From an uncultured Actinomycetes bacterium (GTDB taxonomy: Bacteria > Actinomycetota > UBA4738 > HRBIN12): DNA of 64,000 nt. The stretch is taken from contig CAVVOG010000001.1 of NCBI GenBank assembly GCA_963749895.1, forward strand, positions 18,068 to 82,067, given 5' to 3'. The notes under the pieces were generated by a model. The model did not search any database, was not told the DNA's origin, and saw nothing but the letters and a program-made list of their open reading frames with translations. Made by a program: the position numbers and the translations under genes. Shown here one piece after another: positions 4,417-29,613 of the stretch (the stretch's first letter is position 1; every line of letters begins with the position of its first letter).

Positions 4417-4537
4417 GTCGTCGGACACGCGGCCTCCCGGTGACGGGCCGTTCGGCACGGCTGAGGGCGGCGCGGGTCCGAGAGCATCGAAACGCGTATC
4501 CACTCGCGCGCACCGGCGCGCGGAAGGAGGTTCCATC

Positions 4538-5194: not shown

Positions 5195-5250
5195 TCGACG
5201 GCGAGGTTCACGGGCGTCGGCCCGGCGGCACGGAGCCCTAGGATGGGCAC

Positions 5251-6324: not shown

Positions 6325-6325
6325 G

Positions 6326-6745
6326 CTACGCGCCGTTCACCTCGAACGGCAGCCCCTGGGCCTCCCAGTCGACGAACCCGCCCTCCAGCTCGGCGAAGTC
6401 GGTGAAGCCCGCGTCGACCATCTCCTGGGCCGCCTGCGTCGACATGTTGCCGCTGCGGCAGTAGATCACCAGGGACCCGTCGTCGGGCAGGGCGTCGAGC
6501 TGCGACGTGATGTCGAGGTACGAGATGAACGCGTCGGTCTCCGGGATCTCCCCTTCGTACGGGACGTGCACGTTCACGAGGTAGACGTCCTCGCTCGCCA
6601 TGCGCTCCTGCAGCGCGGCGGGGCTGACCCGCTCCCACCCCGCACCACCACCGCCGCCGTCGGCGGCCTCCTCCGAGTCGCCGCATGCCGTCAGCGTGAG
6701 GGCGGCTACGGCCCCCACGGCGAGCATCACGAACATCCGTCGCAT
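6326..6745 (-). CDS. rhodanese-domain lipoprotein (sulfurtransferase-like)
   Basis: Signal peptide with lipobox LTAC and the rhodanese active-site loop YCRSGNMS. Confidence 0.8.
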   Translation of the reverse strand: MRRMFVMLAVGAVAALTLTACGDSEEAADGGGGGAGWERVSPAALQERMASEDVYLVNVHVPYEGEIPETDAFISYLDITSQLDALPDDGSLVIYCRSGNMSTQAAQEMVDAGFTDFAELEGGFVDWEAQGLPFEVNGA

Positions 6746-6764
6746 CCTGTCGTTCCTCCTCGTG

Positions 6765-7220
6765 TCAGTCGGTGAACCCGATCAGCCGATGGGTCCCGTC
6801 GCAGAACGGCTTGCGCCGCGAGGCGCCGCAGCGGCACAGGGACAGGCGAACGTCCTGGCGGTACGGCTTCCCGGCCGAGTCGAGCACCGTCACGTTCCCG
6901 TGCACCAGGAGCGGGCCGTCGCGGTCGACGCGGATCTCGACCCCGGTGAGGGTGTCTTCCTCCTGCGGTCCGCCGTCGGTCCGGACGGCGTGGAGCGCGC
7001 CGGTCGGGCACCGGGCCACGACCTCGGCCACGTGCACGGGGTCGGCCCCTTCCAGGCGGATCCACGGGCGTGCCCGGGCCTGGAAGACCTCGGGGGCGCC
7101 GCGCAGGCACTCGGCGGCGTGGGTGCACAGGCGCGGCTCCCAGGTGACCTCGATGCCCTCGCCGACGTAGCGCCGGGCCACGTCGTGCTCGTACCGCGCC
7201 TCCTGCTGCTGATCGCTCAC
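6765..7220 (-). CDS. iron-sulfur protein: divergent 4Fe-4S mono-cluster domain fused to a CDGSH-type zinc-finger/Fe-S domain
   Basis: N-terminal Cys pattern C-x-H-x-x-x-C...C and the C-terminal CDGSH motif CRCGASRRKPFCDGTH. Confidence 0.7.
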   Translation of the reverse strand: MSDQQQEARYEHDVARRYVGEGIEVTWEPRLCTHAAECLRGAPEVFQARARPWIRLEGADPVHVAEVVARCPTGALHAVRTDGGPQEEDTLTGVEIRVDRDGPLLVHGNVTVLDSAGKPYRQDVRLSLCRCGASRRKPFCDGTHRLIGFTD

Positions 7221-7368
7221 GTCGGTCCCAACCTACCCGGTCGCGTGCGCATTCCGACGGCGTCCCTGCCGAGCCGGGGCTCCCGTCACGGAGGCGGGAG
7301 CCGCCCGCAGAGCTCCTGGTACGACTCCGTGACCCGCGGATCGGGCGGGCCGAGCCGATGACGCCAAG

Positions 7369-8700
7369 ATGAGGCGCATGGACACGGGTATCCAGGCGAC
7401 GACGCGCCCGAGCGGCCACCTGACGATCGACGGGTGCGACGCGGTCGAGCTCGCGAGCCGGTTCGGCACCCCGCTGTGGGTGATCTCGGAGACGACGATC
7501 CGGGCCAACGCCCGTCGCCTGCACGACGCGTTCGTCGCGGTGCATCCTCGGACCGGCGTCGTCTACGCGTCGAAGGCGAACCCGGAGCCGGCGGTGGTCC
7601 GGATCGCGCACGACGAGGGCTGCTGGGTCGACGTGGTCACGATGGGGCACCTGCGGCTGCTCGAGCGCGCCGGCGTCCCGGCCGCCCACACCGTGTTCAA
7701 CGGCAACGCGAAGACCGGCGAGGAGCTGGCGTGGGCGCTCGCGCACGGGATCGGCGTGATCAACGTCGACTCCCCCGCCGAGCTGGCCGCGATCGCCCGG
7801 CTCCAGCCGCTCGACGCGGCGCCGGTCGACCTGTGCCTGCGGCTGGCCACCGACCCCGCCCGTCACGGCGACGACTCCGCCTACGCGGCGGAGGAGCGCG
7901 GCTCGAAGTTCGGGATGAGCGAGGCGGAGGTCCTCGCCGCGCGCGAGGAGATCGCGGACCATCCCGGGCTCGCGTTCGCGGGGCTCCACAACCACGTCGG
8001 GTTCCCCGCCTACGACCTGCCGTACACCGGCGAGCTGGACCTGCGACGGCATCGCAGGGCCGCCGAGCAGACCCTCGAGCTGGCGGCCGAGCTCCCCGGG
8101 TGCCGGATCGTGAACCTGGGCGGCGGGTTCCGCGTCCCCAAGGACCACGGGTTCGGCCCGGGCGGGCTGACCGACATCCCGCCGGTCGAGGCCTACGCGG
8201 ACACGATCGGCGGGGCCGTGGTCGCGAGCGGCCTGGACGTCGAGCTGCTGGTGGAGGCCGGCGGCTACCTCGTGGCCGACGCGGTCACCCTGCTCGCCAC
8301 CGTGCTCCAGCGCAAGGCCGCGATCGACGGCGGGCCCGATTGGGTGATCGTCCGCGACACGTCGGCGTACCACTACGTCCGCGCCCTGATGTACGGGTTC
8401 CGGCATCACGCCGTCGCACCCGGACGGCTCGACGAGCCCACGACGGAGCGCGTGCGGCTGGCCGGTCCGGTGTGCACCACCGACACGCTGGCCGAGACCG
8501 ACCTGCCGCACCTGAAGGCCGGCGACCTGGTGGCGATCCTCGACCAGGGCGCCTACTGCGAGTCCGTCACGAGCGACTACTGCGCGATCCCGATCCCGGC
8601 GACAGTGCTCGCGTCGAGGGGGCGCGCGGCGCTCGTGCGGCGGCGCGAGACGGTCGAGGACCTGGTCGCCCGCTTCGACGTCCCGGACTGGCTGGACTGA
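7369..8700 (+). CDS. PLP-dependent decarboxylase, Orn/DAP/Arg decarboxylase family 2 (diaminopimelate-decarboxylase-like)
   Basis: FGTPLWV...VYASKANPEPAVV (PLP-Lys region) and the C-terminal beta-sandwich match the LysA family. The exact substrate cannot be assigned. Confidence 0.8.
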   Translation: MRRMDTGIQATTRPSGHLTIDGCDAVELASRFGTPLWVISETTIRANARRLHDAFVAVHPRTGVVYASKANPEPAVVRIAHDEGCWVDVVTMGHLRLLERAGVPAAHTVFNGNAKTGEELAWALAHGIGVINVDSPAELAAIARLQPLDAAPVDLCLRLATDPARHGDDSAYAAEERGSKFGMSEAEVLAAREEIADHPGLAFAGLHNHVGFPAYDLPYTGELDLRRHRRAAEQTLELAAELPGCRIVNLGGGFRVPKDHGFGPGGLTDIPPVEAYADTIGGAVVASGLDVELLVEAGGYLVADAVTLLATVLQRKAAIDGGPDWVIVRDTSAYHYVRALMYGFRHHAVAPGRLDEPTTERVRLAGPVCTTDTLAETDLPHLKAGDLVAILDQGAYCESVTSDYCAIPIPATVLASRGRAALVRRRETVEDLVARFDVPDWLD

Positions 8701-8707
8701 GCCGGTC

Positions 8708-9148
8708 CTACTCCCCGGCCATCTCCAGCTCCGCGTACTCGGCGTTCAGCGCGTCGACGCGCTCGGGATCGAGCAGGTCCTTCATCAGCAGCTGCCCACC
8801 CGTCCTGCGGACCGCATCGCGCAGTCCCGTCGACCACGTGTGCTCGAACAGCGCGACCACCGCGGTCTCGCCGGCCGGGATCGCGTCGACCGCGAGCGCG
8901 ATCTCGTCGGCGTGCAGCAGGCCCATCAGGTCGCCGAGCCCGTCGGCGAACGGCGCCAGCATCGCCTCGGACACCTCGCGCGGCGTCCGAACACGGACGT
9001 CGCCGGCGGGCGCCTTCTCGATGAACGCCAGGTCCACGAGGCGCACCGAACCCCGGTGCTCCACGGCGGACAGCTCCCGGCCGATCTCCGGCGGGATCGT
9101 CTCGCCCTCGTAGCCGATCACCACGAGCTCTAACGGGCCGATCGTCAT
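8708..9148 (-). CDS. hypothetical protein (conserved DUF-type, MTIGPLELVVIGYEG...)
   Basis: ATG at 9148 preceded by GAGGAGG. The upstream 100 codons of ORF 8708..9454 are discarded as a GC-rich run-on. Confidence 0.55.
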   Translation of the reverse strand: MTIGPLELVVIGYEGETIPPEIGRELSAVEHRGSVRLVDLAFIEKAPAGDVRVRTPREVSEAMLAPFADGLGDLMGLLHADEIALAVDAIPAGETAVVALFEHTWSTGLRDAVRRTGGQLLMKDLLDPERVDALNAEYAELEMAGE

Positions 9149-9272
9149 GACGGTGTCCTCCTCGCGTTCGCCTCTTGGATGGAGGCTCCGATCGCACCGT
9201 ACGGCGGACCCCGGAGACGCCCTACGGACGAAGGGCCGGGCCGTTGCGGGCCCCCCGGCTAGACTCGTCTGC

Positions 9273-10187
9273 ATGGAACCCTCCGCCGGACGCATCCTGG
9301 TCGCGGGCGCCTCGGGCGTGATCGGCTCGCGCGTCGTGGAGCGGCTCGTCGCCGCCGGGCGCACCGTCCGCGTCGGCGGTCGCCGGCCCCTCGAGCTCCA
9401 GGCACGCTGGCCCGATCTGGAGGCGGTCGAGCTCGACGTCCTGCGCGACGACACCGTGGCCGAGGCCCTGTCGGGGGCGGCGGCCGCCTACTACCTGGTC
9501 CATTCGATGGAACCGGGGACCGAGGGCGACTTCCACGCGCGCGATGCGACCGGCGCCCGGAGGTTCGCCCGCGCCGCCGCGGCGGCCGGCGTCGGGCGGA
9601 TCGTGTACCTAGGTGGCCTTGGCGACGAGAAGGGGCTGCTGTCCGAGCACCTGTGGAGCCGCCAGGAGATCGGCCGGATCCTCGCGGCCGAGGGGCCCGG
9701 GGTCGTGGAGCTGCGCGCCGCGATGGTCGTGAGCGCCCAGAGCGCCTCGTTCCGGATGGTCCGCGACCTGGTCCACCGGCTGCCGGCGATGGTCCTGCCG
9801 CGCTGGGTCTCGACCCCGACCCAGCCGATCGCGATCGACGACGTCCTGGCGTACCTGGAGGCCGCGCTCGACGTCGGGACCGACGAGCACCACCTGATCG
9901 TCGAGATCGGCGGCCCCGAGGTCCTGACGTACCGGCAGATGATCGAGCGTGTGGGCGCCGCGACCGGTCGCACCCCGCGGATGCTCGACGTCCCGGTCCT
10001 TACCCCGAAGCTCAGCTCGTACTGGACCGGCCTGACGACCTCGGTCCCCGCCGAGCTGGCCCGTCCCTTGATCGAGGGCCTGTCGAGCCCGACCGTCGTG
10101 CGGAGCGACACGGCCCGGACGCTGTTCCCCGCGATCGAGCCCGTCGGGTTCGACGAGGCCGTCAGGCGCGCGCTCGCCGGCGAGTGA
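9273..10187 (+). CDS. NAD(P)-binding Rossmann-fold protein (NmrA/atypical SDR, epimerase-like)
   Basis: ILVAGASGVIGSRVVERLV glycine-rich motif at the N-terminus after M at 9273; the upstream part of the ORF overlaps the divergent gene. Confidence 0.7.
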   Translation: MEPSAGRILVAGASGVIGSRVVERLVAAGRTVRVGGRRPLELQARWPDLEAVELDVLRDDTVAEALSGAAAAYYLVHSMEPGTEGDFHARDATGARRFARAAAAAGVGRIVYLGGLGDEKGLLSEHLWSRQEIGRILAAEGPGVVELRAAMVVSAQSASFRMVRDLVHRLPAMVLPRWVSTPTQPIAIDDVLAYLEAALDVGTDEHHLIVEIGGPEVLTYRQMIERVGAATGRTPRMLDVPVLTPKLSSYWTGLTTSVPAELARPLIEGLSSPTVVRSDTARTLFPAIEPVGFDEAVRRALAGE

Positions 10188-10560
10188 ACCAGGTCCCGGT
10201 CGACCAGAGCGCGGCGGCGATCAGCACCGGCTGGAACAGGAGCCGGACCCAACGCTCGGCGTCGGTGTCGAGCCCGAACGTGTCCGTGCCGTTGACCGCC
10301 TGATGCACGTTCCCCGGGAACACGAGCACGAAGAAGAGCGCGAGCGCCCAGCCGACCTCGCGGCGCCGGGACCGCCACGCGACGAGCGCCACCGCGAACG
10401 CGATCTCGATGACACCGCTGATCCACACCAGCGCCTCGCGAGCGGGGAGCCACGTCGGGGTCTGCCCGAGGAAGTCCTCGGTGGCCACGAGGTGCCCGAC
10501 GCCGGCCACCAGCATGAGGAGCGCAAGTCCCCACCGCACGAGCGCCTTCGCCGATCCCAT
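10162..10560 (-). CDS. small integral membrane protein (DoxX-like topology), hypothetical
   Basis: Four predicted helices. It overlaps the 3' end of the convergent gene at 9273..10187 by 26 nt. The start is uncertain (10560 or 10608). Confidence 0.5.
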   Translation of the reverse strand: MGSAKALVRWGLALLMLVAGVGHLVATEDFLGQTPTWLPAREALVWISGVIEIAFAVALVAWRSRRREVGWALALFFVLVFPGNVHQAVNGTDTFGLDTDAERWVRLLFQPVLIAAALWSTGTWFTRRRARA

Positions 10561-10610
10561 CCATCGACGGTACCGCGACCCCGCACGGTCGGCATGGGAC
10601 CATCCCACGC

Positions 10611-11753
10611 ATGGAGCGGACGGACGTCGCCATCGTCGGGGCGGGCGTGATCGGCCTCGCGTGCGCGGCCGAACTCGGGGCCCGTGGCCTCGGCGTCACG
10701 ATCCTCGAGGCGCTCCCCACGCCCGGGCAGGCGTCCTCCGCGAAGGCGAACGGGGGCGTGCGCGCGCAGTTCACCACCGCGCCGAACGTCGCGTTCTCGC
10801 TCGCGTCGATCGAGGAGTACGAGCGGCTGGAGCGCGACACGGGGCTGCCGGGGTTCCGCCAGCACGGCTACCTGTTGATCGCGGGCGACGACGCGACCGA
10901 GGCCGGGCTGCGCGCCGCGCGCGACCTCCAGCGCTCGATGGGGGTCGACACCGAGTGGCTCGAGCCGCAGGAGGTGGTCGCCGAGGCGCCGTTCGTGCGA
11001 GCCGACGGGATCCGCGGGGGGACGTTCCACGCGCGCGACGGGTTGATCGACCCCGCGGGGGTCGTCACGGCGCTCGAACGGGCGGCGAAGGCCAACGGCG
11101 CGACGATCCGGACCGGGGCGCCGGTCGCGGGGATCGACGCGGACGGCGACCGGTTCCGGGTGCGCCTGGAGGGCGACGAGCTCACGGCCGACGTCGTCGT
11201 GAACGCGGCAGGCGCCGACGCGCGCGTGGTGGCGAGGATGTTCGGCGCCGACGTGCCGGTCGAGCCGGTGCGGCGGAACCTCGCGCTGTTCCTGGACGCG
11301 CCGGGCGAGCCCACGCCGATGGTCGTGGACGTGGCGACCGGGGTGCTCGTGCGTCGCGAGGGCGCGGGTGGGTGGGTCGTCGCCTACTCGAACCCCGCCG
11401 ATCCGCCGGGGCGCGACGAGACCGTGGATCTGCGGTTCTTCGAGGACCTCGCGGAACGGGCGCCGGTCCGGTTCCCGTTCCTGGCGGACCTCCCGCTCGA
11501 CCCCGGGCGGTGCTGGGCGGGCCTGTACCCCGAGACGCCGGACCACCACGCGATCGTCGGGTTCGATCCCGATGTCGCGGGGCTCGTGCACTGCGTCGGG
11601 TTCGGGGGGCACGGGGTGATGCACGCGCCGGCCGCGGGGCTCGCCGTCGCGGAGCTGGTGACCGACGGCGCCTGCGCCTCGTTCGACCTGCGGCCGCTTC
11701 GGCCCTCGCGGTTCGCCGAGGGCGACCTGGTCGTCGAGACCGCCGTGCTGTGA
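10611..11753 (+). CDS. FAD-dependent oxidoreductase (DAO family, glycine/D-amino-acid oxidase-like)
   Basis: N-terminal DVAIVGAGVIGLACAAEL dinucleotide-binding motif; 380 aa. Confidence 0.8.
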   Translation: MERTDVAIVGAGVIGLACAAELGARGLGVTILEALPTPGQASSAKANGGVRAQFTTAPNVAFSLASIEEYERLERDTGLPGFRQHGYLLIAGDDATEAGLRAARDLQRSMGVDTEWLEPQEVVAEAPFVRADGIRGGTFHARDGLIDPAGVVTALERAAKANGATIRTGAPVAGIDADGDRFRVRLEGDELTADVVVNAAGADARVVARMFGADVPVEPVRRNLALFLDAPGEPTPMVVDVATGVLVRREGAGGWVVAYSNPADPPGRDETVDLRFFEDLAERAPVRFPFLADLPLDPGRCWAGLYPETPDHHAIVGFDPDVAGLVHCVGFGGHGVMHAPAAGLAVAELVTDGACASFDLRPLRPSRFAEGDLVVETAVL

Positions 11754-11832
11754 GTCCCTGGGCGACCGGGCCCTCCGGCACCGGGCGTCCGGGGTCGCGC
11801 GGGCGCAGGATGGCTGTCGAGGGAGGTGCACG

Positions 11833-12468
11833 ATGTCGAAGGTGTTGCTCGACCATGTGCCGGCCCGCACGCCGAGGGAGTACGCCCCCGTTCCGCCCCC
11901 GCGTCGGACGCCCGGTCGCTCGAAGATCGAGGCGGGCGTCCTCGGTCTGATCCTGGTGGCGATCTTGGTGTTCACGGCCGGGTTCGCGATGCTGTTCCCC
12001 GACGGCAGGGTCTCGTCCGACGCGTGGACGACGTACCGCGACCCGGGCGGGACGTTCGAGCTGCGGCTCCCGGCCGGGTGGGTGATCGCGCCGCAGGCTA
12101 CGGGCGTGCGGCTGGCGGGCGACGCGATGACCGTGGAGGTCACGGTCCTCGCCGACGAGACCACCAGCGTCGATCAGCTCGCGGGGCTGCGGGCGGGCGA
12201 GCTCGCGGACCTGGGCGCGGCTGAGGTCACGAGCGTGGAAGGCACGACGATCGCAGGTCGTCAGGCGGCGGCGGTCGAGGAGCTGTCCACCGGCGACGGC
12301 CGGGTGACCCGGCGGCTGTACGTCCAGGCCGGGGAGCGCACGGTCGTGACGATCGTGGCCACGGCGGACGAGGGCGCCTTCGATCGTGCGACGGTCGACG
12401 CGATCGTCGCGACGCTCGCGTTCCCCACGGATGTCGAGCCGGGTCTGGTCGATCAGTCGCGGCCGTAG
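11833..12468 (+). CDS. membrane-anchored hypothetical protein (N-in, single TM, extracytoplasmic domain)
   Basis: RBS GGGAGGTG; TM segment GVLGLILVAILVFTAGFAMLF. Confidence 0.5.
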   Translation: MSKVLLDHVPARTPREYAPVPPPRRTPGRSKIEAGVLGLILVAILVFTAGFAMLFPDGRVSSDAWTTYRDPGGTFELRLPAGWVIAPQATGVRLAGDAMTVEVTVLADETTSVDQLAGLRAGELADLGAAEVTSVEGTTIAGRQAAAVEELSTGDGRVTRRLYVQAGERTVVTIVATADEGAFDRATVDAIVATLAFPTDVEPGLVDQSRP

Positions 12469-20613: not shown

Positions 20614-21039
20614 TCAGACCGGGGTGTCGGCGCGGTTGGCGGCCACCTCGGCGAGCGTCGTCTCCCCGACCGTCGCCTGGATCTGAGGCCGGATCTCGCG
20701 CCAACGGAAGTGGAGCTCGCAGGGGTTCTCGGAGGAACACTCCTCGCGCCAGAACAGGCAGCGTCCCTCGAACACGTCGGGCCCCTCGACCGCCAGGAGG
20801 ACTTCGCCGATCGTGATCTCCTCCGGGGGACGCGCCAGCAGGTACCCGCGCCCCCGGCGAGACTCCAGGACCCCGCCCTCGGCGAGCATCCGCATGATCT
20901 TGTGCAGGTACGCGAGCGGCAGGTCCGCCGCTTCCCCGATCTCGCGAGCGTCCACGAAGTCGCCGGCAGGTCGGTCGGCCAGCACCAGCAGGGCCTCGAT
21001 CGCGTAGCGGCTCTCGCGCGCTAGCCGCATCTCCTCCAC
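20614..21039 (-). CDS. Rrf2-family transcriptional regulator with a three-Cys Fe-S cluster motif (IscR/NsrR type)
   Basis: N-terminal wHTH MRLARESRYAIEALLVLA; Cys motif C-x6-C-x5-C (CLFWREECSSENPC). Confidence 0.85.
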   Translation of the reverse strand: MEEMRLARESRYAIEALLVLADRPAGDFVDAREIGEAADLPLAYLHKIMRMLAEGGVLESRRGRGYLLARPPEEITIGEVLLAVEGPDVFEGRCLFWREECSSENPCELHFRWREIRPQIQATVGETTLAEVAANRADTPV

Positions 21040-21067: not shown

Positions 21068-21925
21068 TCACAGGTCCCGCCTCGGCAACGCCCACCGGGC
21101 GAGCACCAGCGGTCCGACCGTCCATGCCGCCAACGACCCCGCCAGCACGCCCACCGAGCCCACGGTCCCGAACGTCGAGACCAGGTAGGCCCCGAACGGC
21201 CCGAGCGCCGTCCCGCGGAAGTTCGTGCCCAGCAACGCGAGGATACGTCCGGCCTCCAGGGGGTTCAGGACGATCGCGGCCAGCAACCCCTGGGGCCCGA
21301 GGTGGACCGACGGGGCGAGCGCCGCCAGCGCGAGGTCCACGCCCAGCGAGAACACGATCCACAGGCCGACACCGCCGGCCACCGCCTGCGCCCGGTTCGA
21401 CGCGAACGACGACAACGCCACCCCGATCGCGACGCTCGACGCGGCGACCCCCAGGGTCGCCCCGATCAGGGTCACCAAGGCGGGGACGTCGCTGCCGCGC
21501 GCCACGCTCGACATCACGAGCAGCGCGACCCCGTAGCCGACCCCGAGGGTGACCCACATCGACCCGGTGAGCCCGAGGAACGCACCGGCCACGATCGACG
21601 AGCGCCGCATCGGCTGGGCGGCCATCATCGCCAGGAGCCCCTGTTCGCGGGCCCCGACGATCGCGCCGGAGCCCAGCAGCAGCCCCATCAGCGACGGCAG
21701 CAGGATCCCGAGGTTCACGAGCGTCGCCGAGGCGGGGCCGATCCCCGACAGCCCCAGCTCGCGGACCGTGCGGAACCCCAGGAGCGTCACGGTCAGGCAC
21801 AGCACGCCGAAGATCGCCGCCATCACCAGCACCCAGCGGGCACGCACGCTGGTGCGGAACTCCCATCCCGCGATCGTGCGGGCCGGCGAACGTCGCCGCG
21901 GCACCGGGGTCGTGACCGCGCTCAT
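21068..21925 (-). CDS. nosY: ABC-2 type permease, NosY-like
   Basis: 6-TM permease whose ATG overlaps the nosF stop (ATGA). Assigned by its position in the nosDFY triad. Confidence 0.75.
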   Translation of the reverse strand: MSAVTTPVPRRRSPARTIAGWEFRTSVRARWVLVMAAIFGVLCLTVTLLGFRTVRELGLSGIGPASATLVNLGILLPSLMGLLLGSGAIVGAREQGLLAMMAAQPMRRSSIVAGAFLGLTGSMWVTLGVGYGVALLVMSSVARGSDVPALVTLIGATLGVAASSVAIGVALSSFASNRAQAVAGGVGLWIVFSLGVDLALAALAPSVHLGPQGLLAAIVLNPLEAGRILALLGTNFRGTALGPFGAYLVSTFGTVGSVGVLAGSLAAWTVGPLVLARWALPRRDL

Positions 21926-22626
21926 CCCGCCGCCTCCAGCCCCTCGTCCTCAGCCGGCTTCGGCCCATCGAACGGGGTCCCGGTGAAGTCCTCGTCGAGC
22001 GCCAGGCGGCCGTCCTCCACCGTGATGCCGCGGTCGGCGACCCGCCGGAGCTCCGAGGGGGCCGGTGAGCTCACGATCGCGGTGACCCCTCGCTCGTCGC
22101 GCAGGCGGCGCAGGACGCCCCAGAACACCTCGCGGCCCTCCTCGTCCAGGTTCGCGACCGGCTCGTCCAGCAGGAGCAGGGTCGGATCTCCGAGCAGCGC
22201 GATCGCGAGCGCGACCCGGTGACGCTGGCCACCCGAGAGCGTGCCGATCCGCGCGTCGTCGTCACGGACGAAGCCCTCGGGGAGCGGCACGGTGGCCCGG
22301 TCGGCGCCGCGGAGATCGGCGAACAGGTCGAGCATCTCGCCGACCGTGGCGTGCTCGGGCATCCCGACGGTCTGCGGCAGGTAGCCGATCCGCTCCCGAT
22401 GCGCCGGCGTGGCGTCGAGCTCGGCGCCGTCGAGACGGATCACGCCCTCGTGGCGGACGAGCCCGGCCACGCACTTCAGGAAGGTGCTCTTGCCGCTGCC
22501 GTTCGGCCCGCCGAGCGCGACGATCCTGCCCGCGGGCACGTCGAGGTCGACGCCGTGCAGCCCGAAGCCGCCCGGGTACACCTTGCGGAGCGCCTCGACG
22601 CGCAGACGTGACGTGCGCTCGCTCAT
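21922..22626 (-). CDS. nosF: ABC transporter ATP-binding protein, NosF-like
   Basis: Walker A GPNGSGKST, signature LSGGQRHRVAL, Walker B LLLLDEP. The ATG at 22626 overlaps the nosD stop (ATGA). Confidence 0.85.
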   Translation of the reverse strand: MSERTSRLRVEALRKVYPGGFGLHGVDLDVPAGRIVALGGPNGSGKSTFLKCVAGLVRHEGVIRLDGAELDATPAHRERIGYLPQTVGMPEHATVGEMLDLFADLRGADRATVPLPEGFVRDDDARIGTLSGGQRHRVALAIALLGDPTLLLLDEPVANLDEEGREVFWGVLRRLRDERGVTAIVSSPAPSELRRVADRGITVEDGRLALDEDFTGTPFDGPKPAEDEGLEAAG

Positions 22627-24122
22627 GCCGCCACCACCCTGCGGGGTCGCCGGCGCGCACGGACCAGGAGCCAGCCGCAGCCGAGGGTGAGCGCGAGCCC
22701 GGGGATCCACAGCGGTGCCCGCGGCCCGATCCGCTCGGCGGCCAGTGGCGGCGACGACAGCTCGGTCAGCGGTGCGTCGTCGAGCACGAGCGGCTCGGCC
22801 GGCGCCCACCGCTCCTCGACCGCCGACAGCAGCCGGAACGCCGGTCCGGAGGCGAGCGCGAGCAGGACGGGATCCTCCGCGATCAGCTGGCTCGTCCGGC
22901 CGCTCCGCGAGTACGCGAGGTCACCGGTGCCGTCGCCTCCGGCGTCGAAGCCGCCGTAGTCGCTCCAGTAGTTGCCCACGCCGTCGACGGTCCAGACCGC
23001 CTGCGTGCGCCCCGTCCCCCCGAGGGCCACCTGCGTCGTGTTCTCCACGAAGCCGTTGTCCGTGAACCACGCGTCGGCCGACGGGAACAGCAGGACGCCG
23101 ATCTGGTTCACCGCCACGGTGTTCCGAACCAGTCGGGCCGGCTCACCCCCCGTGCGGCCCGCGTCGTCGATGTGCACCGCGACGCGGTTGTCGGCGATCA
23201 CGTTGTCGCGCAGCAGCACGCCGCCGGCGTCCTTCACCAGGACGCCGAACCCGGTCGACGGGCTGCCGTTCTCGGTGATCGTGTTGCCCTCGACCGCGAC
23301 GGGCCCCCCGTACATCAGGACGATGCCGGAGAGGTTCCCGCTCAGGTCGTTGCCGCGGAACGCCACGTCGGCCGCGTACATGTCGTGGAGGCCGTAGCGG
23401 CTGTCCGACACGCGGACGCCCTCGATGACGCAGCCGGTCCCGTACGTCAGCTGGACGCCGTCGCGGACCGTCTCGATCACGCTGTCGCGCACGATCGTCC
23501 GTTCGCTGTCGAACAGCCAGATCCCGTCGCCGCGGAGCTTCGTAGGTTCGGCCTCGCCGCCGGCGTCGGTCGCGACGTCGCTCACCGCGTGGAGCTCTCC
23601 GGAGATGATCCCGCTGCCGCGGACCGTCACGCGCTCGATCACGACGTCACGGGCGCGCTGCACGGTGATGCCCATGTAGGAGTCCTGGACCTCCAGGTCG
23701 TGAAGGTACGCCCGGTGTCCCCCGCGCTTCACCAAGATCCCGGACGGCGCGCCCACCGGGAAGCGCTCGCTCCCGCGAACGAGGATGCCCGACACCTCGA
23801 CGTCGGGGGCCGCGACCGTGAGCACCGAACCCTCGCCCTGCCCGTCGAGCACGACGCCGGGCGCACCGACCAGCGTGATCGGCGCGTCGATCGTGAAGTT
23901 GCCGGTGTGGGTGCCGGCCGGAACGGTGACGGTCGACCCCGGCACCGCCGCGTCCAGCATCGCCTGCAGGTCACCCGTGGCGCCGGCGGGGGCCACGGGG
24001 AGCACCGTCGCCCCTGCGAGGGCGAGGCCCCCGAGCAGGAGGCGGACGGCGACGCGGACGCCCGCCACGGCGCTACCCCGTGACCGACGCGGGTTCGTCG
24101 GCCGGCGACGCGGCCTCGTCAC
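22623..24122 (-). CDS. nosD: periplasmic copper-binding protein NosD (right-handed parallel beta-helix repeats)
   Basis: Signal peptide followed by repeated beta-helix units (TVRGSG.., NVIADNRVAVHI.., FVENTT..). The exact start is uncertain (24122, or an internal Val near 24068). Confidence 0.85.
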   Translation of the reverse strand: MTRPRRRPTNPRRSRGSAVAGVRVAVRLLLGGLALAGATVLPVAPAGATGDLQAMLDAAVPGSTVTVPAGTHTGNFTIDAPITLVGAPGVVLDGQGEGSVLTVAAPDVEVSGILVRGSERFPVGAPSGILVKRGGHRAYLHDLEVQDSYMGITVQRARDVVIERVTVRGSGIISGELHAVSDVATDAGGEAEPTKLRGDGIWLFDSERTIVRDSVIETVRDGVQLTYGTGCVIEGVRVSDSRYGLHDMYAADVAFRGNDLSGNLSGIVLMYGGPVAVEGNTITENGSPSTGFGVLVKDAGGVLLRDNVIADNRVAVHIDDAGRTGGEPARLVRNTVAVNQIGVLLFPSADAWFTDNGFVENTTQVALGGTGRTQAVWTVDGVGNYWSDYGGFDAGGDGTGDLAYSRSGRTSQLIAEDPVLLALASGPAFRLLSAVEERWAPAEPLVLDDAPLTELSSPPLAAERIGPRAPLWIPGLALTLGCGWLLVRARRRPRRVVAA

Positions 24123-24738
24123 CGTCCTCGTCGGACCGTCCGGCCGTCACGAACTCCTTGACGAAGCCCCAGTACATCGGGCCGAGCGTGACGAGCGCCG
24201 CGGCGCCGAACAGGCACCACAGCGCCTCGCCCGGCCACGCGATCGTCTTCACGTTGCTCGCGACCGCGACCTTCCCGATCACCCAGGGGGTGAACGGCTC
24301 GACGTCGATCGGGGCGGCAGGATCGATCGTGTGACCCATCTGGTACAGGCGGTACTGGATGTCGATCAGCACCCCGATCGGGATCAGCCAGAGCAGGACG
24401 ATCGCGCCGCGTCGCCACCATCCCGAGAGGACGGTGGCCACCGCGATCAGCGCGATCGCGGCGACGAGCGCCGGGTTCCACAACACCGTCTCCGCCAACT
24501 CGCCCATGTCGAAGACCTTCACCCCGACGTAGTGGTTCAAGATCGCGATCTCGTCGACGTCGCCCTCGATCCGATCGCCGTAGGCGGTCAGGACCAGCTG
24601 GCGGTTCGGGTACTGCAGGACCTCGAGCCGGGCCTGCCAGACGGGCAAGCCGAAGGCCAGGACGACGAGGACGACGGCCACCGCGCCGAAGACGACCCGG
24701 ACGAGCCGGTCCCCTCGAGCGCTCCGGTCAGCCGTCAT
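24073..24738 (-). CDS. polytopic membrane protein of unknown function inside the nos cluster (possible NosB-like)
   Basis: 5-6 predicted helices, no signal or lipobox; located between the cupredoxin gene and nosD. Confidence 0.55.
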   Translation of the reverse strand: MTADRSARGDRLVRVVFGAVAVVLVVLAFGLPVWQARLEVLQYPNRQLVLTAYGDRIEGDVDEIAILNHYVGVKVFDMGELAETVLWNPALVAAIALIAVATVLSGWWRRGAIVLLWLIPIGVLIDIQYRLYQMGHTIDPAAPIDVEPFTPWVIGKVAVASNVKTIAWPGEALWCLFGAAALVTLGPMYWGFVKEFVTAGRSDEDGDEAASPADEPASVTG

Positions 24739-24767
24739 CCTCGATCGTCCCTCCGAACGTCAGGACC

Positions 24768-25238
24768 TCATCCCACCGTGAGCGTGCCGACCATCGTGGC
24801 CGGGTGGGCGAAGCAGTTGAAGGTGTAGGTGCCCGCGGGGAGCGCCGGGATCTCGTACACGACCTCGGCGACGCCGTTGATCAACTCGTTGTTCGCGGGC
24901 GCGAACACCGGGGTCACGGTCGTGTCGGTGCCCTCGAAGATCTGAACGTTGTGCGGGATGCCCGTGTCGTCGTTCTTGAACAGGATCGTGAACGGGGTGT
25001 CGGCGGGCGCGGACAGCTCCGTCTCGGCGAACCCGGTGTTCGAGGACCCGACCGGCGCGGTGATCGTGAGTTCGGTCGACGGCGCCGTCGTCTCGGTCTC
25101 GGTCGCGGCCGACGACGAAGTGGACGTCGCCGCGCTGGAGGTCGTGGTCGTCTCGTCGGCCGGGCTGTCGCCGCCCGAGCAGGCCGACAGGACGAGCCCG
25201 GCGACCACCGCGACCGCGGCGATCCGGATGAACCTCAT
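24768..25238 (-). CDS. cupredoxin (plastocyanin/azurin-type blue copper) lipoprotein
   Basis: RBS AAAGGAG; lipobox LSAC; type-1 copper ligands His (PHNVQIF) and C-x2-H-x3-M (FNCFAHPATM). Confidence 0.8.
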   Translation of the reverse strand: MRFIRIAAVAVVAGLVLSACSGGDSPADETTTTSSAATSTSSSAATETETTAPSTELTITAPVGSSNTGFAETELSAPADTPFTILFKNDDTGIPHNVQIFEGTDTTVTPVFAPANNELINGVAEVVYEIPALPAGTYTFNCFAHPATMVGTLTVG

Positions 25239-25341
25239 GCGTGCTCCTTTCGATGCGGATCCCTCGTGAGCTGCGTGGAACGCGAGGGGGGCGCCGGGTG
25301 GCGCCCCCACCATGGTAGGGGCGCCACCCGGCTTGGGGGGG

Positions 25342-27318
25342 TTAGGGCGCCACCTCGATCCAGCCCTGCATCTCGAGGTGGAGGGCGGAGCAGAACTCCG
25401 TGCAGTACATCGCGAAGGTCCCCGGCCGGTTGAGCGGCAGGTCGACGTTCACGACCTCGCCCGCGTCGATCGAGACCTCGATGTTGTGCTGAGGGATCGC
25501 GAACCCGTGGGTCGCGTCGGGCGTCTGCTCCACGTTCGTCAGGTGCAGCCGGAGGGTGTCGCCGACCTTCGCCTGGATCGTGTCCGGCGTGAAGTGGCTC
25601 CGCAGCACCGACATGTAGACGTGGACGTCCTTGCCGTCGCGCTCGATCTTCTCCTGCCCGGCTTCGATCGCGAACTCGGACCTCGCCCAGGTGGCGGGGT
25701 CCGTCCCCGGGTCGTACACCTGGATCGTGTGGACGAGCTTGTCCGCCTTGATCATCTGGACGTAGTGCGGCTCGCCCATGCCGATCGGCGCGTCGTACAG
25801 CACCTCCATCTGGTCGCCGGTCAGGTCGACCAGCTGGAAGTTCTGCGGGTGCAACGTGCCGAGCGGCGGGAAGCGGTCGATCGACCACTTGTTGAGCGCC
25901 ACGAGGTAGGTCCCGTCGGGGTTCACCGTGTCGCCCTCGGCGGTCACCAGGTGCCCGATGTTGTACTGGACCGGCAGCTTCTCCACGAGCTGGAACGCAT
26001 CCCCGTCGTGCCCGGCCTTCGGCCCGAGGGACCACTTCGCGACGGCCGTGTCGATGAACAGCGACGTGTAGGCGTAGCCCTTGTCGTCGAACTGCGTGTG
26101 GAGCGGCCCCGCACCCAGCTCGACCTGCGCGATCATCACGTCCTCGAGCTTGAGGATCGGCACGCCGTACTCGTCTTCGCCCTCGTAGGTGCCGGCGTCG
26201 ATCGCGGCCTTGATCTTCTCGAACTCGTAGACGCTGCCGTTCGGATCGAGCTTGCCGCCGATGCAGATGTAGTCGCCGGTCGGATTCACGTCGACGCCGT
26301 GCGGGCTCTTCGGCTCTGGCGCGAGCGTCAGGACCTTCTCGGCTGCAGCCACGTCGAGCGGGATCACGTTCATCCCGTTGATCTCGACCGTCTCGCCGGC
26401 CTTGAAGAGCTCCTCGGCCTTCTGCCAGTCGATGATGTGGAGGTAGTCGTAGTCGTTCGCGGAGGCGCCGGCCTCGAGCGGCTGACCACCCTGCGAGGTC
26501 CCGACCGCCATCTCCGAGTTGTACGAGTTGATGAATCCGTAGCCGAAGCTGGTCAGCTTGCCGGCGTCGGCGAGGTCCTGCGTGTACGGGGGAAGTTCGA
26601 TCTGGAAGGTGCTCGCCTTGTCGAACCTGCCGGTCTCCTGGTCGATCGCGATCCACGTCGAGAACCCGCGGAACTCCTCCTTGAACCTCGACAGGGGCGC
26701 GTAGCCGTTCACGGGGGTCGGCGTCATCGTCGAGATGTGCACGTACTCCGAGTTGGGCGTCACGAAGCACCCGCCGTGCGAGGTCTGGAGGTTGGGGATG
26801 TCCCAGATCTCCTTGGTCTTGAAGTCGCGGAGATCGATCATCGCGATCCGGCCGTTCGCGCGGTCGTTGATGTAGAGCCAGCGACCGTCGTAGTCGCCCT
26901 CGGTCTCGGACAGCGCCGGGTGGTGCGTGTCACCCCAGTACACCGGGTTGCTCTTGTCGGGGTCGATCCCACCCTCGAGCACGAGGTTCCCCTGATCGCT
27001 GCCGTAGCCGTACCCCTGCCACGCATCGGGTGTGAAGACGGGGATCACCTTGAGGACGCGCATCGAGGGCACACCCATCACGATCATCTGCCCGGAGTGC
27101 CCGCCGGACGCGAACATGAAGTACGGGTCGTACTCGCCGGGTGGGACGAACGTCTTCTGCGCGGCGCTCGACTGGTCACCCGTCAGCCCCTGCCCGGAGT
27201 CGCCGTCGTCCCCGCCGGACGAGGAGAACCCGACCCTCGCCCCGGCTGCCCCGACCACGACGCCGCCCGCGAGCATGCCCAGCGCCGCTCGGCGAGAGAC
27301 CTGCGGTCCACCTGCCAT
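25342..27318 (-). CDS. nosZ: nitrous-oxide reductase NosZ (Tat-dependent)
   Basis: Twin-arginine signal SRRAALGMLAGG and a beta-propeller body. C-terminal CuA site HGF...YCTEFCSALHLEM. RBS GAAGGAGGAG lies before the ATG at 27318; an alternative upstream ATG exists at 27354. Confidence 0.95.
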   Translation of the reverse strand: MAGGPQVSRRAALGMLAGGVVVGAAGARVGFSSSGGDDGDSGQGLTGDQSSAAQKTFVPPGEYDPYFMFASGGHSGQMIVMGVPSMRVLKVIPVFTPDAWQGYGYGSDQGNLVLEGGIDPDKSNPVYWGDTHHPALSETEGDYDGRWLYINDRANGRIAMIDLRDFKTKEIWDIPNLQTSHGGCFVTPNSEYVHISTMTPTPVNGYAPLSRFKEEFRGFSTWIAIDQETGRFDKASTFQIELPPYTQDLADAGKLTSFGYGFINSYNSEMAVGTSQGGQPLEAGASANDYDYLHIIDWQKAEELFKAGETVEINGMNVIPLDVAAAEKVLTLAPEPKSPHGVDVNPTGDYICIGGKLDPNGSVYEFEKIKAAIDAGTYEGEDEYGVPILKLEDVMIAQVELGAGPLHTQFDDKGYAYTSLFIDTAVAKWSLGPKAGHDGDAFQLVEKLPVQYNIGHLVTAEGDTVNPDGTYLVALNKWSIDRFPPLGTLHPQNFQLVDLTGDQMEVLYDAPIGMGEPHYVQMIKADKLVHTIQVYDPGTDPATWARSEFAIEAGQEKIERDGKDVHVYMSVLRSHFTPDTIQAKVGDTLRLHLTNVEQTPDATHGFAIPQHNIEVSIDAGEVVNVDLPLNRPGTFAMYCTEFCSALHLEMQGWIEVAP

Positions 27319-27336
27319 GGTGCTCCTCCTTCTCTC

Positions 27337-27353
27337 TGGACCTTTCTGGTCCA
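27337..27353. promoter_or_regulatory. perfect palindrome TGGACC-N5-GGTCCA, 19 nt upstream of the nosZ start; candidate operator
   Basis: Read directly from the sequence. It is part of a GGACC/GGTCC-rich array spanning 27337-27485. Confidence 0.4.
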
Positions 27354-27400
27354 TTGCCCCGTCACCGTGGCACCGATCGAACGTCGGAGGGAAGCGCGAA

Positions 27401-27430
27401 GGTCCCGGGTTCGAGAGGACCTTTGGACCA
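27401..27430. promoter_or_regulatory. GGTCC-N11-GGACC inverted repeat overlapping a GGACCtttGGACCA direct repeat in the nosZ/MBL divergent intergenic region
   Basis: Read directly from the sequence (coordinates +/-1). Confidence 0.35.
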
Positions 27431-27488
27431 TCTTCGTCCAGAGGTACCTCACGGCGATCGCTCGGACCGGCGCTGTTAGGGTCCCGCC

Positions 27489-28352
27489 ATGACGATCGCG
27501 ACGATCACCGTCGGCCACGTCGAGGTGACCGCACTGCTCGACGGGATCTCCGAGGACATCCCGATCCTGGAGGCCTTCCCCGACGCCCCGCCCGACGCGC
27601 TCCTCGCTGCGCGCGACCGGTTCCCGGACGTCTACGGCCCGGACGACACGTGGCGCCTGACCGTGCGCGCATGGCTCGTGCGGCACCCGGAGGGCGAGCT
27701 CCTGATGGACACGGGGGTCGGCTCGACCGCGGCGATGTCGTGGTTCCCGGAACCCGGTCGCCTCCACGAAGCCCTGGCAGAGGCCGGCACCGCCGCCCAC
27801 CTCGTGAACACCGTCGTCGTGTCCCACATCCACGACGACCACGTGGGGGGCACGGTCACCACCGAGGGCGAGCTTGCGTTCCCGAACGCCCGGTTCGTGA
27901 TCCAACGAGCCGACCTGGACGCCGCCCGCACGAGCGCGACGGCCGCCGATGCCGACGAGGAGGACGTCGCGGTCTGGGACACGCTCCTCGCCCCCCTGGA
28001 GGCCGCCGGGCTCTTCGACGTGGTGGAGGGTGACCACGCCCTCACCGGGTCCCTCCGACTCCACCACGCGCCCGGCCACACGCCCGGCCACCAGGTCCTG
28101 CGCATCACGTCGAAGGGCTCGCGGGCGCTGCTCTCGGCGGACACCTGGAACCACCCGGCACAGCTCGCCCACCCGGACTGGTCCTCGGCGCCCGATGGAG
28201 CGCCCGGCAGGGCGGCCGCGACCCGCCGATCGATGCTCGCGGGACTCCTGTCCCATCCCGGCACGATCGTGGCCACGACGCACTTCGCCGAGGCGTTCGG
28301 GCACGTGGTGAGCGGACGCGACGGTCTCGCGACCTGGGAGCCGGTGGCGTAG
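27489..28352 (+). CDS. MBL-fold metallo-hydrolase (lactonase-like)
   Basis: HxHxDH motif SHIHDDHVGG and C-terminal His ligands (HHAPGHTPGH). Confidence 0.8.
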   Translation: MTIATITVGHVEVTALLDGISEDIPILEAFPDAPPDALLAARDRFPDVYGPDDTWRLTVRAWLVRHPEGELLMDTGVGSTAAMSWFPEPGRLHEALAEAGTAAHLVNTVVVSHIHDDHVGGTVTTEGELAFPNARFVIQRADLDAARTSATAADADEEDVAVWDTLLAPLEAAGLFDVVEGDHALTGSLRLHHAPGHTPGHQVLRITSKGSRALLSADTWNHPAQLAHPDWSSAPDGAPGRAAATRRSMLAGLLSHPGTIVATTHFAEAFGHVVSGRDGLATWEPVA

Positions 28353-28362
28353 GGCGAACCCG

Positions 28363-29613
28363 TCAGATCACGAACGGTTCCGACGGCGTGGACTGCAGGA
28401 AGGTCCCGCCGTCCTCGGTGAAGGCCATCGTGTTGATGCTCATCGCGAGCCCGGCCTGCTGGGGGAGGTAGAAGTTGGCCTCGTAGTTCATGACGTCGCC
28501 GGGCTCGAACGTCGCGTCGCCCGGATCCACGCCCAGCTCGTAGACGAAGTCCCCCACCCAGTCGGGAGGGAACGCGATCCCCAGCTCGTAGCCGCCGACC
28601 CACCACTCGTCGCCCAACAGACCGACGTCGCGGTAGTAGCTCTCCACCCTCGCGAGGAGGTCGCGCACCGGAAGCCCCGGCCGGATCGCGTCGGCGACGA
28701 CGTTCACCGCGTCGGTCGTCTTGCGGATGTGCGCGAGCACCTCCGCATCGGGCTCGCCGATCGAGAAGCATCGCGCGGTGTTCGCGTGGTAGCGGTGATG
28801 GACGCCGCACACGTCGACGTTGACGATGTCGCCGGGCATGATCTGTCGCCTGCTGGCCAGCCCGTGGACCGTCGCGGCCCGAGGGCCGCTGACCACCGGC
28901 AACGGGATCGCCGCGACCTCGCCGCCGGCAGCGGCCATCGCGTGGATCATCGCGCCGTAGACCTCCAGCTCCGTCACGCCGGGCTCCGCGAGGGCGTCGT
29001 GTGCCGCCGAGAGCCCCACGTCGGCGATCCTCTGCGCCGTCCGCACGTAGGCGAGCTCCTGCGGGGACTTGCGGCGTCGAACCGCCCGGACGACGTCGGT
29101 CCCGTCGACGACCTCGGCGGCGCCTGCCGACTCCAGCACGGCCTGGAACCGCTCCGAGACGGTCCGCGGCGGCCGGTAGCAGCGCATCTCCAGCCCGACG
29201 CGGCCGCCGAGCCATCCCTCGGCCTTCAGCTCGCCCGCGATGAAGTCGAATCCTTCGGGTCCGAGCCCCTCGAAGATCCGCACGTCCGGGGAGACAGCGG
29301 TGAACTGGAGCAGCGCGGCCTCCTCGGGATCGTCGAAGTGGATCGACCTGTCGTGGTCGACGTGGACGGCGACCCCCGAGGCCGGCATCCATCCGGCCGG
29401 GCCGTTGGCCTGGTACCACTCGGCCGCGTATCCGGTCAGGTAGTTGATCGACTCGGGCGCCGTCACGTAGAGGAGGTCGATCCCCCGGTCGGCCATCGCC
29501 GCCCGGACGCGAGCGAGCCGCTCGCGGTACTCGCGGAGCGAGAACGGGGCCTCGAGCTGCGGGTTCAGCCGCTCCAGCACCCGGCGCTTGTTCGGTCCCA
29601 TCGCATCCCCCAT
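28363..29613 (-). CDS. M24-family metallopeptidase (creatinase/Xaa-Pro aminopeptidase/ectoine-hydrolase-like)
   Basis: Creatinase_N-like N-terminus plus a pita-bread C-terminal domain. RBS GAAGGAGGAAC lies before the ATG at 29613. Confidence 0.8.
   Translation of the reverse strand: MGDAMGPNKRRVLERLNPQLEAPFSLREYRERLARVRAAMADRGIDLLYVTAPESINYLTGYAAEWYQANGPAGWMPASGVAVHVDHDRSIHFDDPEEAALLQFTAVSPDVRIFEGLGPEGFDFIAGELKAEGWLGGRVGLEMRCYRPPRTVSERFQAVLESAGAAEVVDGTDVVRAVRRRKSPQELAYVRTAQRIADVGLSAAHDALAEPGVTELEVYGAMIHAMAAAGGEVAAIPLPVVSGPRAATVHGLASRRQIMPGDIVNVDVCGVHHRYHANTARCFSIGEPDAEVLAHIRKTTDAVNVVADAIRPGLPVRDLLARVESYYRDVGLLGDEWWVGGYELGIAFPPDWVGDFVYELGVDPGDATFEPGDVMNYEANFYLPQQAGLAMSINTMAFTEDGGTFLQSTPSEPFVI

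Follow-up and report, generated by a model that had tools for sequence, protein, structure and literature searches.

We analysed a stretch of 64,000 nucleotides from an uncultured Actinomycetes bacterium (contig CAVVOG010000001.1, positions 18,068 to 82,067; the whole stretch is called the window below), in which the nitrous-oxide reductase gene nosZ (minus strand, ATG at 27318) and a gene for a metallo-β-lactamase (MBL)-fold protein (plus strand, ATG at 27489) are divergent, with a gap of 170 bp. This intergenic region very probably represents a cis-regulatory module that has been conserved at nosZ and nirK promoters and that consists of two different palindromic elements, P and D, and a -10-like hexamer. 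We favour a model, with a probability of roughly 0.6, in which P is read by the Rrf2-family protein encoded in the nos operon and D by a second factor. A preliminary description of this DNA had taken the region to be the regulatory region of nosZ, and the elements conserved in related promoters support this view.

The comparison started from a NosZ scan of species-representative genomes, which afforded 31 loci; those with 68-94% NosZ identity were uncultured Actinomycetota metagenome-assembled genomes (MAGs), and those with ~60% were Chloroflexota. We added more loci by looking up homologues of Rrf2 and of NosZ and by scanning metagenomes with an alignment of Rrf2. The comparison loci fetched for the analysis bear L-numbers below, and 844 kb in total were scanned with the P and D matrices. 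The gene order nosZ ... nosY-Rrf2 was kept in the Actinomycetota loci, and the Rrf2 gene immediately followed nosY in ~30 metagenome contigs. In L034/36, L054, L056 and L065/66, an Rrf2 orthologue was divergent to a NirK-like multicopper gene, whose product had copper nitrite reductase TIGR02376 as its best family (184 bits, under the cut-off of 296). The intergenic sequences of the related loci could not be aligned outside D, the hexamer and P.

The P element is 23 bp long, with the consensus CAAyGGAC-N7-GTCCrTTG, or CAAyGGACy-N5-rGTCCrTTG when written with its inner bases, and was symmetric in 22 aligned sites (e.g. TAACGGACTggataGGTCCGTTA in L032 and CCATTGGACGagaagGGTCCAATGG in L037). The principal site of the window, P1, reads CAATGGACCagaaaGGTCCAGAG on the nosZ strand and encloses a perfect 17-bp palindrome, TGGACCTTTCTGGTCCA, which we found just as previously reported, at 27337-27353 with its centre at 27345, 27 nt from the nosZ ATG. 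The proposal that this palindrome is a dimer-type operator is likewise supported. With a symmetric weight matrix trained without the window site, P1 ranked first among 63,978 window positions, scoring 19.6 vs 9.4 for the runner-up. In the 844 kb, the P matrix gave 42 matches of at least 14, including 34 of at least 20, and every one of those 34 lay at an expected promoter. In its geometry, a site of ~23 bp whose arms flank an N5 spacer, P fits Rrf2 operators, among them the NsrR site gATGyAT-N5-ATrCATc (PMC1274295) and the 11-3-11 repeat termed characteristic of full-length Rrf2 sites, for which RsrR is an example (PMC5015018).

A weaker site of the same type, P2, was the third-best P-matrix match in the window (8.8). 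Stronger sites occupy the same position in L042, L025, L026 and L065, as detected with the matrix, and in L037 and L054, as judged by eye, and the extra half-site beside D is thus part of another P-type operator. At 27417-27430, the direct repeat GGACCtttGGACCA is indeed present, and its second GGACC copy is that of P2; the repeat GGACCtttGGACC, formerly counted among the operator half-sites, is instead the junction of D and this weak second P-type site.

The D element is a palindrome of ~29 bp, CGAwGGTCCCG-N7-CGGGACCwTCG. A profile of 21 sites gave the symmetric consensus CCGAw-GGTCCCG-N7-CGGGACC-wyCG, with a spacer free in sequence and constant in length. All related promoters contain GGTCCC-N9-GGGACC, with an N8 spacer in L001 and AGTCCC in L042. 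The N8 spacer is possibly a homopolymer error of a long-read assembly. L001, a long-read MAG and the closest relative (94% NosZ identity), shows single-base deletions relative to the window in the spacers of both D and P2 (5860-5905), which may be homopolymer sequencing errors and not real variation. The D of the window, whose GGTCC-N11-GGACC inverted repeat at 27401-27421 had been correctly described, scored 26.8 with the D matrix, and all matches of at least 26 in the 844 kb sat in nosZ or nirK promoters. A tRNA-like fragment (GGTTCGA in the D spacer) was rejected as a candidate, since the spacer sequence is different in every locus. A second D in L002 (4577, upstream of a radical-SAM gene) scored below 12 with a flank-inclusive matrix and was treated as uncertain.

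When D and P were aligned on their dyads, both showed an N7 centre; their arms were unrelated and their polarity opposite, the half-sites being laid out as GGAC-N7-GTCC in P and as GTCCC-N9-GGGAC in D. One single binding mode cannot explain both elements, which were also gained and lost independently of each other across the loci. The earlier idea that the GGWCC copies are equivalent half-sites of one regulator thus has to be replaced by two elements that differ in half-site polarity and spacing. In L092 (1970-2300), and also in L091, what directly follows a promoter-like stretch is an Rrf2 reading frame reduced to its C-terminal third. The L092 stretch holds cgaaGGTCCC ... GGGACCttcg, with a 26-nt spacer between the hexamers vs the usual 9, and a strong P site, CAAAGGACCAGAACAGTCCGTTG; the two loci look like the outcome of a deletion that runs from a nos or nirK promoter to halfway through the regulator gene. 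In the Chloroflexota loci, no D was found upstream of nosZ, except for a D-like pair in L019 (5154-5260, a Dehalococcoidia MAG), where the palindromes ccgaatGGCCCcggcctgccgGGACCttcgg and cgaaGGTCCctgctgcccgcgGGACGttcg lie upstream of a small gene preceding nosZ. The D-type element may thus extend beyond Actinomycetota.

The two elements are held in a constant layout. Among 19 distinct promoters (15 of nosZ and 4 of nirK), all 19 have a [T/C]ANNNT hexamer at 30-32 nt from D, the relatives of the window carrying TACGGT, TAGGGT, TAGCTT, TAACTT, TAGCCT or TATCGT. The P core (GGAs-N7-GTCC) follows the hexamer after 7-14 nt in 17 promoters and after 1 nt in L008, while L002 is without P. The nirK promoters share this layout, as in L054, where D is followed after 31 nt by TAGCCT and, 14 nt further on, by GGATAaaacaAGTCC. 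With the hexamer taken as the -10 element, the predicted nosZ start falls at ~27357, which would place P1 over ~+1 to +23 and the centre of D at ~-54. No -35-like hexamer is visible at the nosZ promoter, and a consensus scan of 27200-27600 found neither a sigma-70 two-hexamer promoter nor an intrinsic terminator. The absent -35 element would fit an activator-dependent actinobacterial promoter.

We also examined the density of GGWCC pentamers, from which the preliminary description had started. GGWCC starts at 27338, 27348, 27401, 27417, 27425, 27464 and 27480 in the intergenic region, and one more copy, at 27305, is inside nosZ. The reported excess of about seven copies over roughly one expected was reproduced, with 7 in 170 bp (27338-27507) vs a window mean of 0.93 per 170 bp. 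This count is the maximum of the window, where the runner-up stretch has 5, though the intergenic region is less GC-rich than the window (64% vs 71%), and a maximum of at least 7 was reached in 2.75% of 400 order-2 Markov simulations of the window (P ~0.03). Over the entire window, 351 copies were observed vs 297 expected from base composition, so that the pentamer shows neither avoidance nor the abundance of a generic repeat. The single sub-patterns occur at chance frequency, namely GGACY-N5-RGTCC with 2 matches (1.04 expected), GGTCC-N11-GGACC with 1 (0.58 expected) and GGAC-N7-GTCC with 6 (5.8 expected), and the functional case therefore rests on the comparison across loci. Chance, a generic repeat or the trace of a GGWCC restriction-modification system could account for a cluster that by itself reaches only P ~0.03 and for bare cores at chance frequency in the window. 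Such an origin is effectively refuted by the expected frequency of GGWCC, by the occurrence of D and P once per locus, and by their fixed spacing in ~20 independent promoters of two different genes. That the motif is no generic repeat is thus borne out, its elements being single-copy and conserved.

P is probably the operator of the Rrf2 protein encoded in the nos operon, which the preliminary description had named as a candidate and which comparative evidence supports as the best candidate binder of the palindrome. The homologues of this protein form a tight group of 71 clusters at >=53% identity, the next being at <=45%. At 17/18 promoters linked to this Rrf2 clade, P scored at least 17.7, and at all 5 nos loci without a clade member, namely L002 and L093 (one lineage), L096, L095 and L094, it scored at most 1.5. 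In L002/L093 and L096, there is no Rrf2 gene and the best P score is at most -0.4, with D kept and TANNNT at 31-32 nt. L094 has an Rrf2 protein of its own that is only 30% identical, and neither P nor D. The Rrf2 proteins of the Chloroflexota loci L017 and L018 are 28-32% identical, and no P match of at least 14 was found there; L017 has a weak D-like match (16.7) upstream of its Rrf2 gene. Since Rrf2 genes of 28-32% identity stand at the ends of Acidimicrobiia and Chloroflexota nos clusters without P, the association of Rrf2 with nos probably arose more than once.

Further support for the pairing of P with this protein family came from more distant homologues (43-47% identity; L078 and L080-L087, from organisms of 52-60% GC), which have gCCAAAGGACT-N5-rGTCCTTTGac at 27-35 nt upstream of their own gene. 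L078 and L080, both outside the training set, gave a P score of 23, and D was absent at the distant-homologue loci. At these loci, the Rrf2 gene heads an operon unrelated to nos, encoding an Fe-S flavoprotein, a cytochrome b, a multihaem cytochrome c and a large molybdoenzyme of the dimethyl sulfoxide reductase family. In L083, for example, the near-perfect CAAAGGAC-N7-GTCCTTTG (2624-2646) lies ~30 nt upstream of such an operon (2663-12386), an arrangement that suggests autoregulation and a role of these homologues in another anaerobic respiratory pathway.

The Rrf2 protein of the window has the motif C-X6-C-X5-C-X2-H, which aligns with all four cluster ligands of IscR (Cys92, Cys98, Cys104 and His107), and the four ligands are invariant in 24 clade members. 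Its nearest solved relative is E. coli IscR (E = 2e-10), with NsrR in the PDB at E = 4e-5. The protein falls under the curated cut-offs for IscR, NsrR, CymR and RirA; the NCBIfam IscR model, for example, gave 63 bits vs a cut-off of 207, and the NsrR model NF008240 gave 29 vs 182. That an Rrf2 protein can repress denitrification genes, nirK among them, is known from NsrR (PMC1274295).

In the model that we favour, an Rrf2 dimer on P1, over the predicted transcription start, would block nosZ transcription, with the weaker P2 flanking D, and the block would be lifted once NO, O2, redox state or a similar signal has changed the Fe-S cluster, as is the case for NsrR and for holo-IscR at type 1 sites; we lean slightly towards repression as the mode of action at P. 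D would be the target of another factor, encoded outside the window and most likely an activator because the promoters are without a recognisable -35 element; a NarL-family response regulator like DevR or OsdR is one candidate. The same D/-10/P module would drive the NirK-like nitrite reductase genes of the lineage, and its presence at both nosZ and nirK marks a small denitrification regulon. The sites, their conservation and spacing and the joint occurrence of P with the Rrf2 gene are observed; the transcription start, the assignment of proteins to sites, the direction of regulation and the signal are parts of the model.

Alternatively, one regulator may serve both elements, the Rrf2 protein repressing from P and activating from D by its cluster state, a scheme that we consider unlikely. 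The nearest characterised relative, IscR, has the same Cys3His ligands and shows that one Rrf2 protein can read two site types and can repress as well as activate (PMC5411485); both its two site types and its activation from type 2 sites are established (PMC5411485, PMC4169559). In addition, D, with its ~29 bp and dyad symmetry, is inside the range of ~19-29 bp for Rrf2 sites and is flanked by nirK and the Rrf2 gene in the divergent loci, and D and P co-occur at the clade-linked promoters (P being degenerate in L044). However, L002/L093 and L096 keep D at its fixed spacing with P gone and no Rrf2 gene within 14-22 kb, although the gene could be elsewhere in the genome, and the distant Rrf2 homologues carry P without D. 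D also misfits the IscR type 2 consensus, its CC...GG spacing being 2 bp shorter (PMC4169559).

We then considered a specific version of the second factor, in which D is a pair of DevR/DosR/OsdR boxes (GGGAC-N4-GKCCC) for a hypoxia- or NO-responsive NarL-family regulator, with the proximal box centred at ~-42.5 and the distal one at ~-65.5 from the predicted start. Such boxes are palindromes of 18-20 bp that carry G5 and C7 in each half. The inner half-sites of D, GGGAC/GTCCC, equal the DevR half-site, and two adjacent boxes with the proximal one at ~-42.5, as D would have them, are known for DevR/DosR (M. tuberculosis) and OsdR (Streptomyces), whose regulated genes serve hypoxic or anaerobic respiration (PMC3177182, PMC5069765). 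The tandem boxes of M. tuberculosis DevR lie in helical phase at -42.5/-63.5, the second being poorly conserved (PMC3177182). The outer flanks of D complete perfect DevR boxes only in L003/4 (GGGACCCCTGTCCC), L006/7 (GGGACCCTCGGCCC) and L093 (GGGACCTCCGTCCC), and the OsdR consensus AGGGCCGATCGGCCCT (PMC5069765) resembles GGTCCGATGGTCCC in L071 and L065. A GAF-HisKA_3 kinase and a NarL-type regulator are encoded beside nos in L002/L093 and L095, together with a universal stress protein in L093. Nevertheless, this version seems doubtful. The conserved halves of D face apart (GTCCC-N9-GGGAC), unlike those of the known boxes, and the halves that would complete the boxes are poorly conserved, with 0.1-1.3 bits of information vs 1.5-2.7 for the inner half-sites. 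The boxes in D would be 23 bp apart (22 in L001) and not 21, no acceptable match to the DevR or OsdR consensus was found in 27300-27500, and no DevR-type regulator is encoded in the 64-kb window. The inner inverted repeat, strictly conserved at its fixed N9, is a better fit to one symmetric protein.

The nos clusters without Rrf2 in L093 (1411-6916) and L095 (15766-19652) are flanked by the GAF-HisKA_3 kinase, the NarL-type regulator and CBS/BON proteins, a gene set that resembles the mycobacterial DevS/DevR dormancy locus. L093 also has D-like repeats in two further places, one 5' of a gene for a sulfite/nitrite reductase (19321) and one immediately ahead of the regulator gene (~6227). A perfect DevR-type palindrome, GGGACTCCTGTCCC, is located at 28241-28254 of the window, inside the 3' end of the MBL gene; ~11 matches with <=1 mismatch are expected in the window by chance, and this one is thus probably fortuitous. 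As a tentative extension of the favoured model, D may be the site of an undescribed master activator of nosZ, nirK and perhaps other denitrification genes in uncultured Actinomycetota, possibly also in Chloroflexota, acting together with a new Rrf2 subfamily whose operator GGAC-N7-GTCC gates the transcription start.

Several observations weigh against the two-factor model. L044 carries the Rrf2 gene yet has only a degenerate P, with a score of 2.5. Residue 43 of the recognition helix (H/S/A/Q) showed no clean covariation with the base flanking the P core, Ser-43 proteins accompanying both TGGAC and CGGAC sites, in a comparison that is confounded by phylogeny. The pattern of presence and absence of P draws on a small number of independent lineages, and phylogeny confounds it as well. 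The hexamer of the window, CACGGT, is not TANNNT, and the generic two-hexamer scan finds nothing there. With regard to a DevR-like factor at D, both putative boxes in the window have at least 3/10 mismatches, and L095 has a DevS/DevR-like pair beside nos yet no D, which count equally against the reading of D as DevR boxes. Finally, P1 would lie in the 5' untranslated region, given the predicted start, and might fold into a hairpin in the RNA; in a model with a 9-bp stem, 86% of cells were paired (22 sites), and position 4/20 changes symmetrically (TA in 7, AU in 6 and CG in 5 sequences).

These last features would suit a mechanism at the RNA level, in which P1 is a 5' hairpin that stabilises the mRNA or governs its translation, and D a hairpin in an upstream transcript. 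We regard such a mechanism as improbable. The core GGA/TCC is invariant across phylum-level distances, pairing at the inner positions 8-16 and 9-15 is lost, with no compensatory change, in 6 and 7 of the 22 sequences, respectively, and symmetric change is equally expected of the two half-sites of a homodimer. Moreover, P2 and the P sites of the distant homologues are placed elsewhere relative to their genes, and what co-occurs with P is a gene for a winged-helix protein that binds DNA. As for D, it is located 5' of the -10 hexamer, no covariation is seen between its arms, and its spacer changes freely in sequence while its length stays constant. Given the invariant core, the uncompensated inner pairs, the homodimer symmetry and the position of D, a DNA operator is the more economical reading.

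In Proteobacteria, Bacillus and Streptomyces, the [4Fe-4S] Rrf2 protein NsrR senses NO and represses hmp, nirK/aniA and norB. The module resembles the NsrR system in having an Fe-S Rrf2 regulator encoded beside N-oxide genes under its putative control, and a palindromic operator with N5 between its arms that overlaps the promoter, as expected for repression, nirK being a known NsrR target (PMC1274295). Furthermore, the Lys after helix residue 43 corresponds to Lys45 of ScNsrR (PMC5411485). The two systems differ in that the operator has a GC core, GGAC/GTCC, whereas NsrR sites are AT-rich, in that a His follows the third Cys, as in IscR, and in that the target is a clade II-type nosZ in Actinomycetota. 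IscR itself, an Rrf2 protein with a [2Fe-2S] cluster, regulates the biogenesis of Fe-S clusters in E. coli, and its type 1 sites are bound only with the cluster, type 2 sites with or without it. Unlike IscR, which has Glu43, the clade has His, Ser, Ala or Gln at this residue, and its gene lies in nos/nirK clusters and not in isc/suf.

We also scanned the region for the sites of known regulators. In 27300-27500, the best match to the NsrR consensus gATGyAT-N5-ATrCATc had 6/14 mismatches, and the IscR type 1 consensus gave 12/25. The IscR type 2 consensus AxxxCCxxAxxxxxxxTAxGGxxxT (PMC4169559) had a sole loose match, with 2/9 mismatches at 27434, which is neither D nor P. No FNR/DNR/NnrR box (TTGAT-N4-ATCAA), which would be expected at about -41.5, was found with <=3 mismatches in 26881-28432, the best one in 27300-27500 having 4/10. 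The scans thus agree with the preliminary description that the sites are unlike FNR/DNR or NsrR boxes, and, judged by sequence, P and D are not members of the NsrR, IscR, DevR or FNR site families. By analogy, the module would work like repression of the NsrR or IscR type 1 kind combined with an upstream activator site.

Organisms with clade II-type NosZ are important soil sinks of N2O, and we know of almost nothing on nosZ regulation in uncultured Actinomycetota. In the literature that we searched, a single paper brings up both Rrf2 and clade II nosZ. Rrf2 genes have been reported in clade II nos clusters on marine Bacteroidetes metagenome scaffolds, and Rrf2 is there, as in the present loci, a recurrent companion of clade II-type nos without nosR; that report, unlike the present one, concerns gene content only and gives no operator (PMC6264515). 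No explicit cis-regulatory model of nosZ and nirK in uncultured Actinomycetota preceded the one presented here, which offers two elements with exact coordinates and a named Fe-S candidate regulator, with nirK and nosZ wired to one shared module in the lineage. The signature of D, 31 nt, TANNNT and P, together with the matrices, offers a means of finding co-regulated denitrification genes in metagenomes. If true, the tentative extension with a master activator at D would give soil Actinomycetota a two-key switch of N2O reduction, unmatched by the NosR/NnrR/DNR systems of model denitrifiers. The coordinates of the features are collected in Table 1.

Table 1. Elements and genes of the nosZ region, in window coordinates.
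Feature	Coordinates	Strand	Description
D	27396-27426		distal palindrome GCGAAGGTCCCGGGTTCGAGAGGACCTTTGG; core GGTCC-N11-GGACC at 27401-27421; centre ~-54 from predicted nosZ start
P1	27334-27356		23-bp palindrome CTCTGGACCTTTCTGGTCCATTG; core GGAC-N7-GTCC at 27338-27352; contains the 17-bp palindrome 27337-27353
P2	27421-27443		weak P-type site CTTTGGACCATCTTCGTCCAGAG; core 27425-27439; abuts D on the side distal to nosZ
nosZ -10-like hexamer	27364-27369	-	CACGGT, putative; predicted start near 27357
nosZ ribosome-binding site	27325-27329	-	GGAGG, 6 nt 5' of ATG 27318; read from sequence
nosZ	25342-27318	-	nitrous-oxide reductase, 658 aa; Pfam nos_propeller and Cupredoxin
Rest of nos operon	21068-25313	-	cupredoxin gene, open reading frame, nosD, nosF, nosY; order shared by all related loci
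Cupredoxin gene	within 24768-25313	-	tblastn, 70% identity
Conserved open reading frame	24073-24738	-	221 aa; between cupredoxin gene and nosD
nosD	22623-24122	-	Pfam NosD
nosF	21922-22809	-	nos operon member
nosY	21068-21925	-	Pfam ABC2_membrane_2
Rrf2-family regulator gene	20614-21030	-	138 aa, ATG 21030; last gene of nos operon; Pfam Rrf2 3.9e-30
MBL-gene -10-like hexamer	27477-27482	+	TAGGGT, 6 nt 5' of ATG 27489; putative
GGACC copy	27464-27468		no element; no in-register match in L001 or L042

The preliminary description had also suggested that the sites may control the divergent MBL gene, for which we found no support. Control of this gene by D or P2 was rejected, as there is no conserved geometry and the gene has a putative -10 hexamer of its own. 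L001, L042 and L006 likewise have TAGGGT or TAGGCT 6-7 nt 5' of the MBL start (four lineages with the window), and the MBL mRNA appears to be leaderless and transcribed from its own promoter. The remaining GGWCC copies, noted near 27463 and 27479, are present at 27464 and 27480, but they are not a conserved part of the system, the latter being explained by its overlap with the -10 hexamer of the MBL gene. The top family match of the MBL-fold hydrolase was weak, to AidB-type acyl-homoserine lactonases (92 bits vs a cut-off of 360).

Pfam scans of ~30 window genes revealed no regulator near nos besides the Rrf2 gene. The conserved open reading frame between the cupredoxin gene and nosD is kept in all related nos clusters and has no Pfam or NCBIfam family match; it is a putative, uncharacterised accessory component of the nos cluster of this lineage. 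The best model for NosZ was the clade II 'Sec-dependent' NCBIfam TIGR04246 (770 bits, cut-off 625). Despite this 'Sec-dependent' best model, the NosZ N-terminus, MAGGPQVSRRAALGMLAGG, has a twin-arginine (Tat-type) motif, as do those of the related Actinomycetota loci, and in L096 a tatA-like gene lies directly upstream of nosZ.

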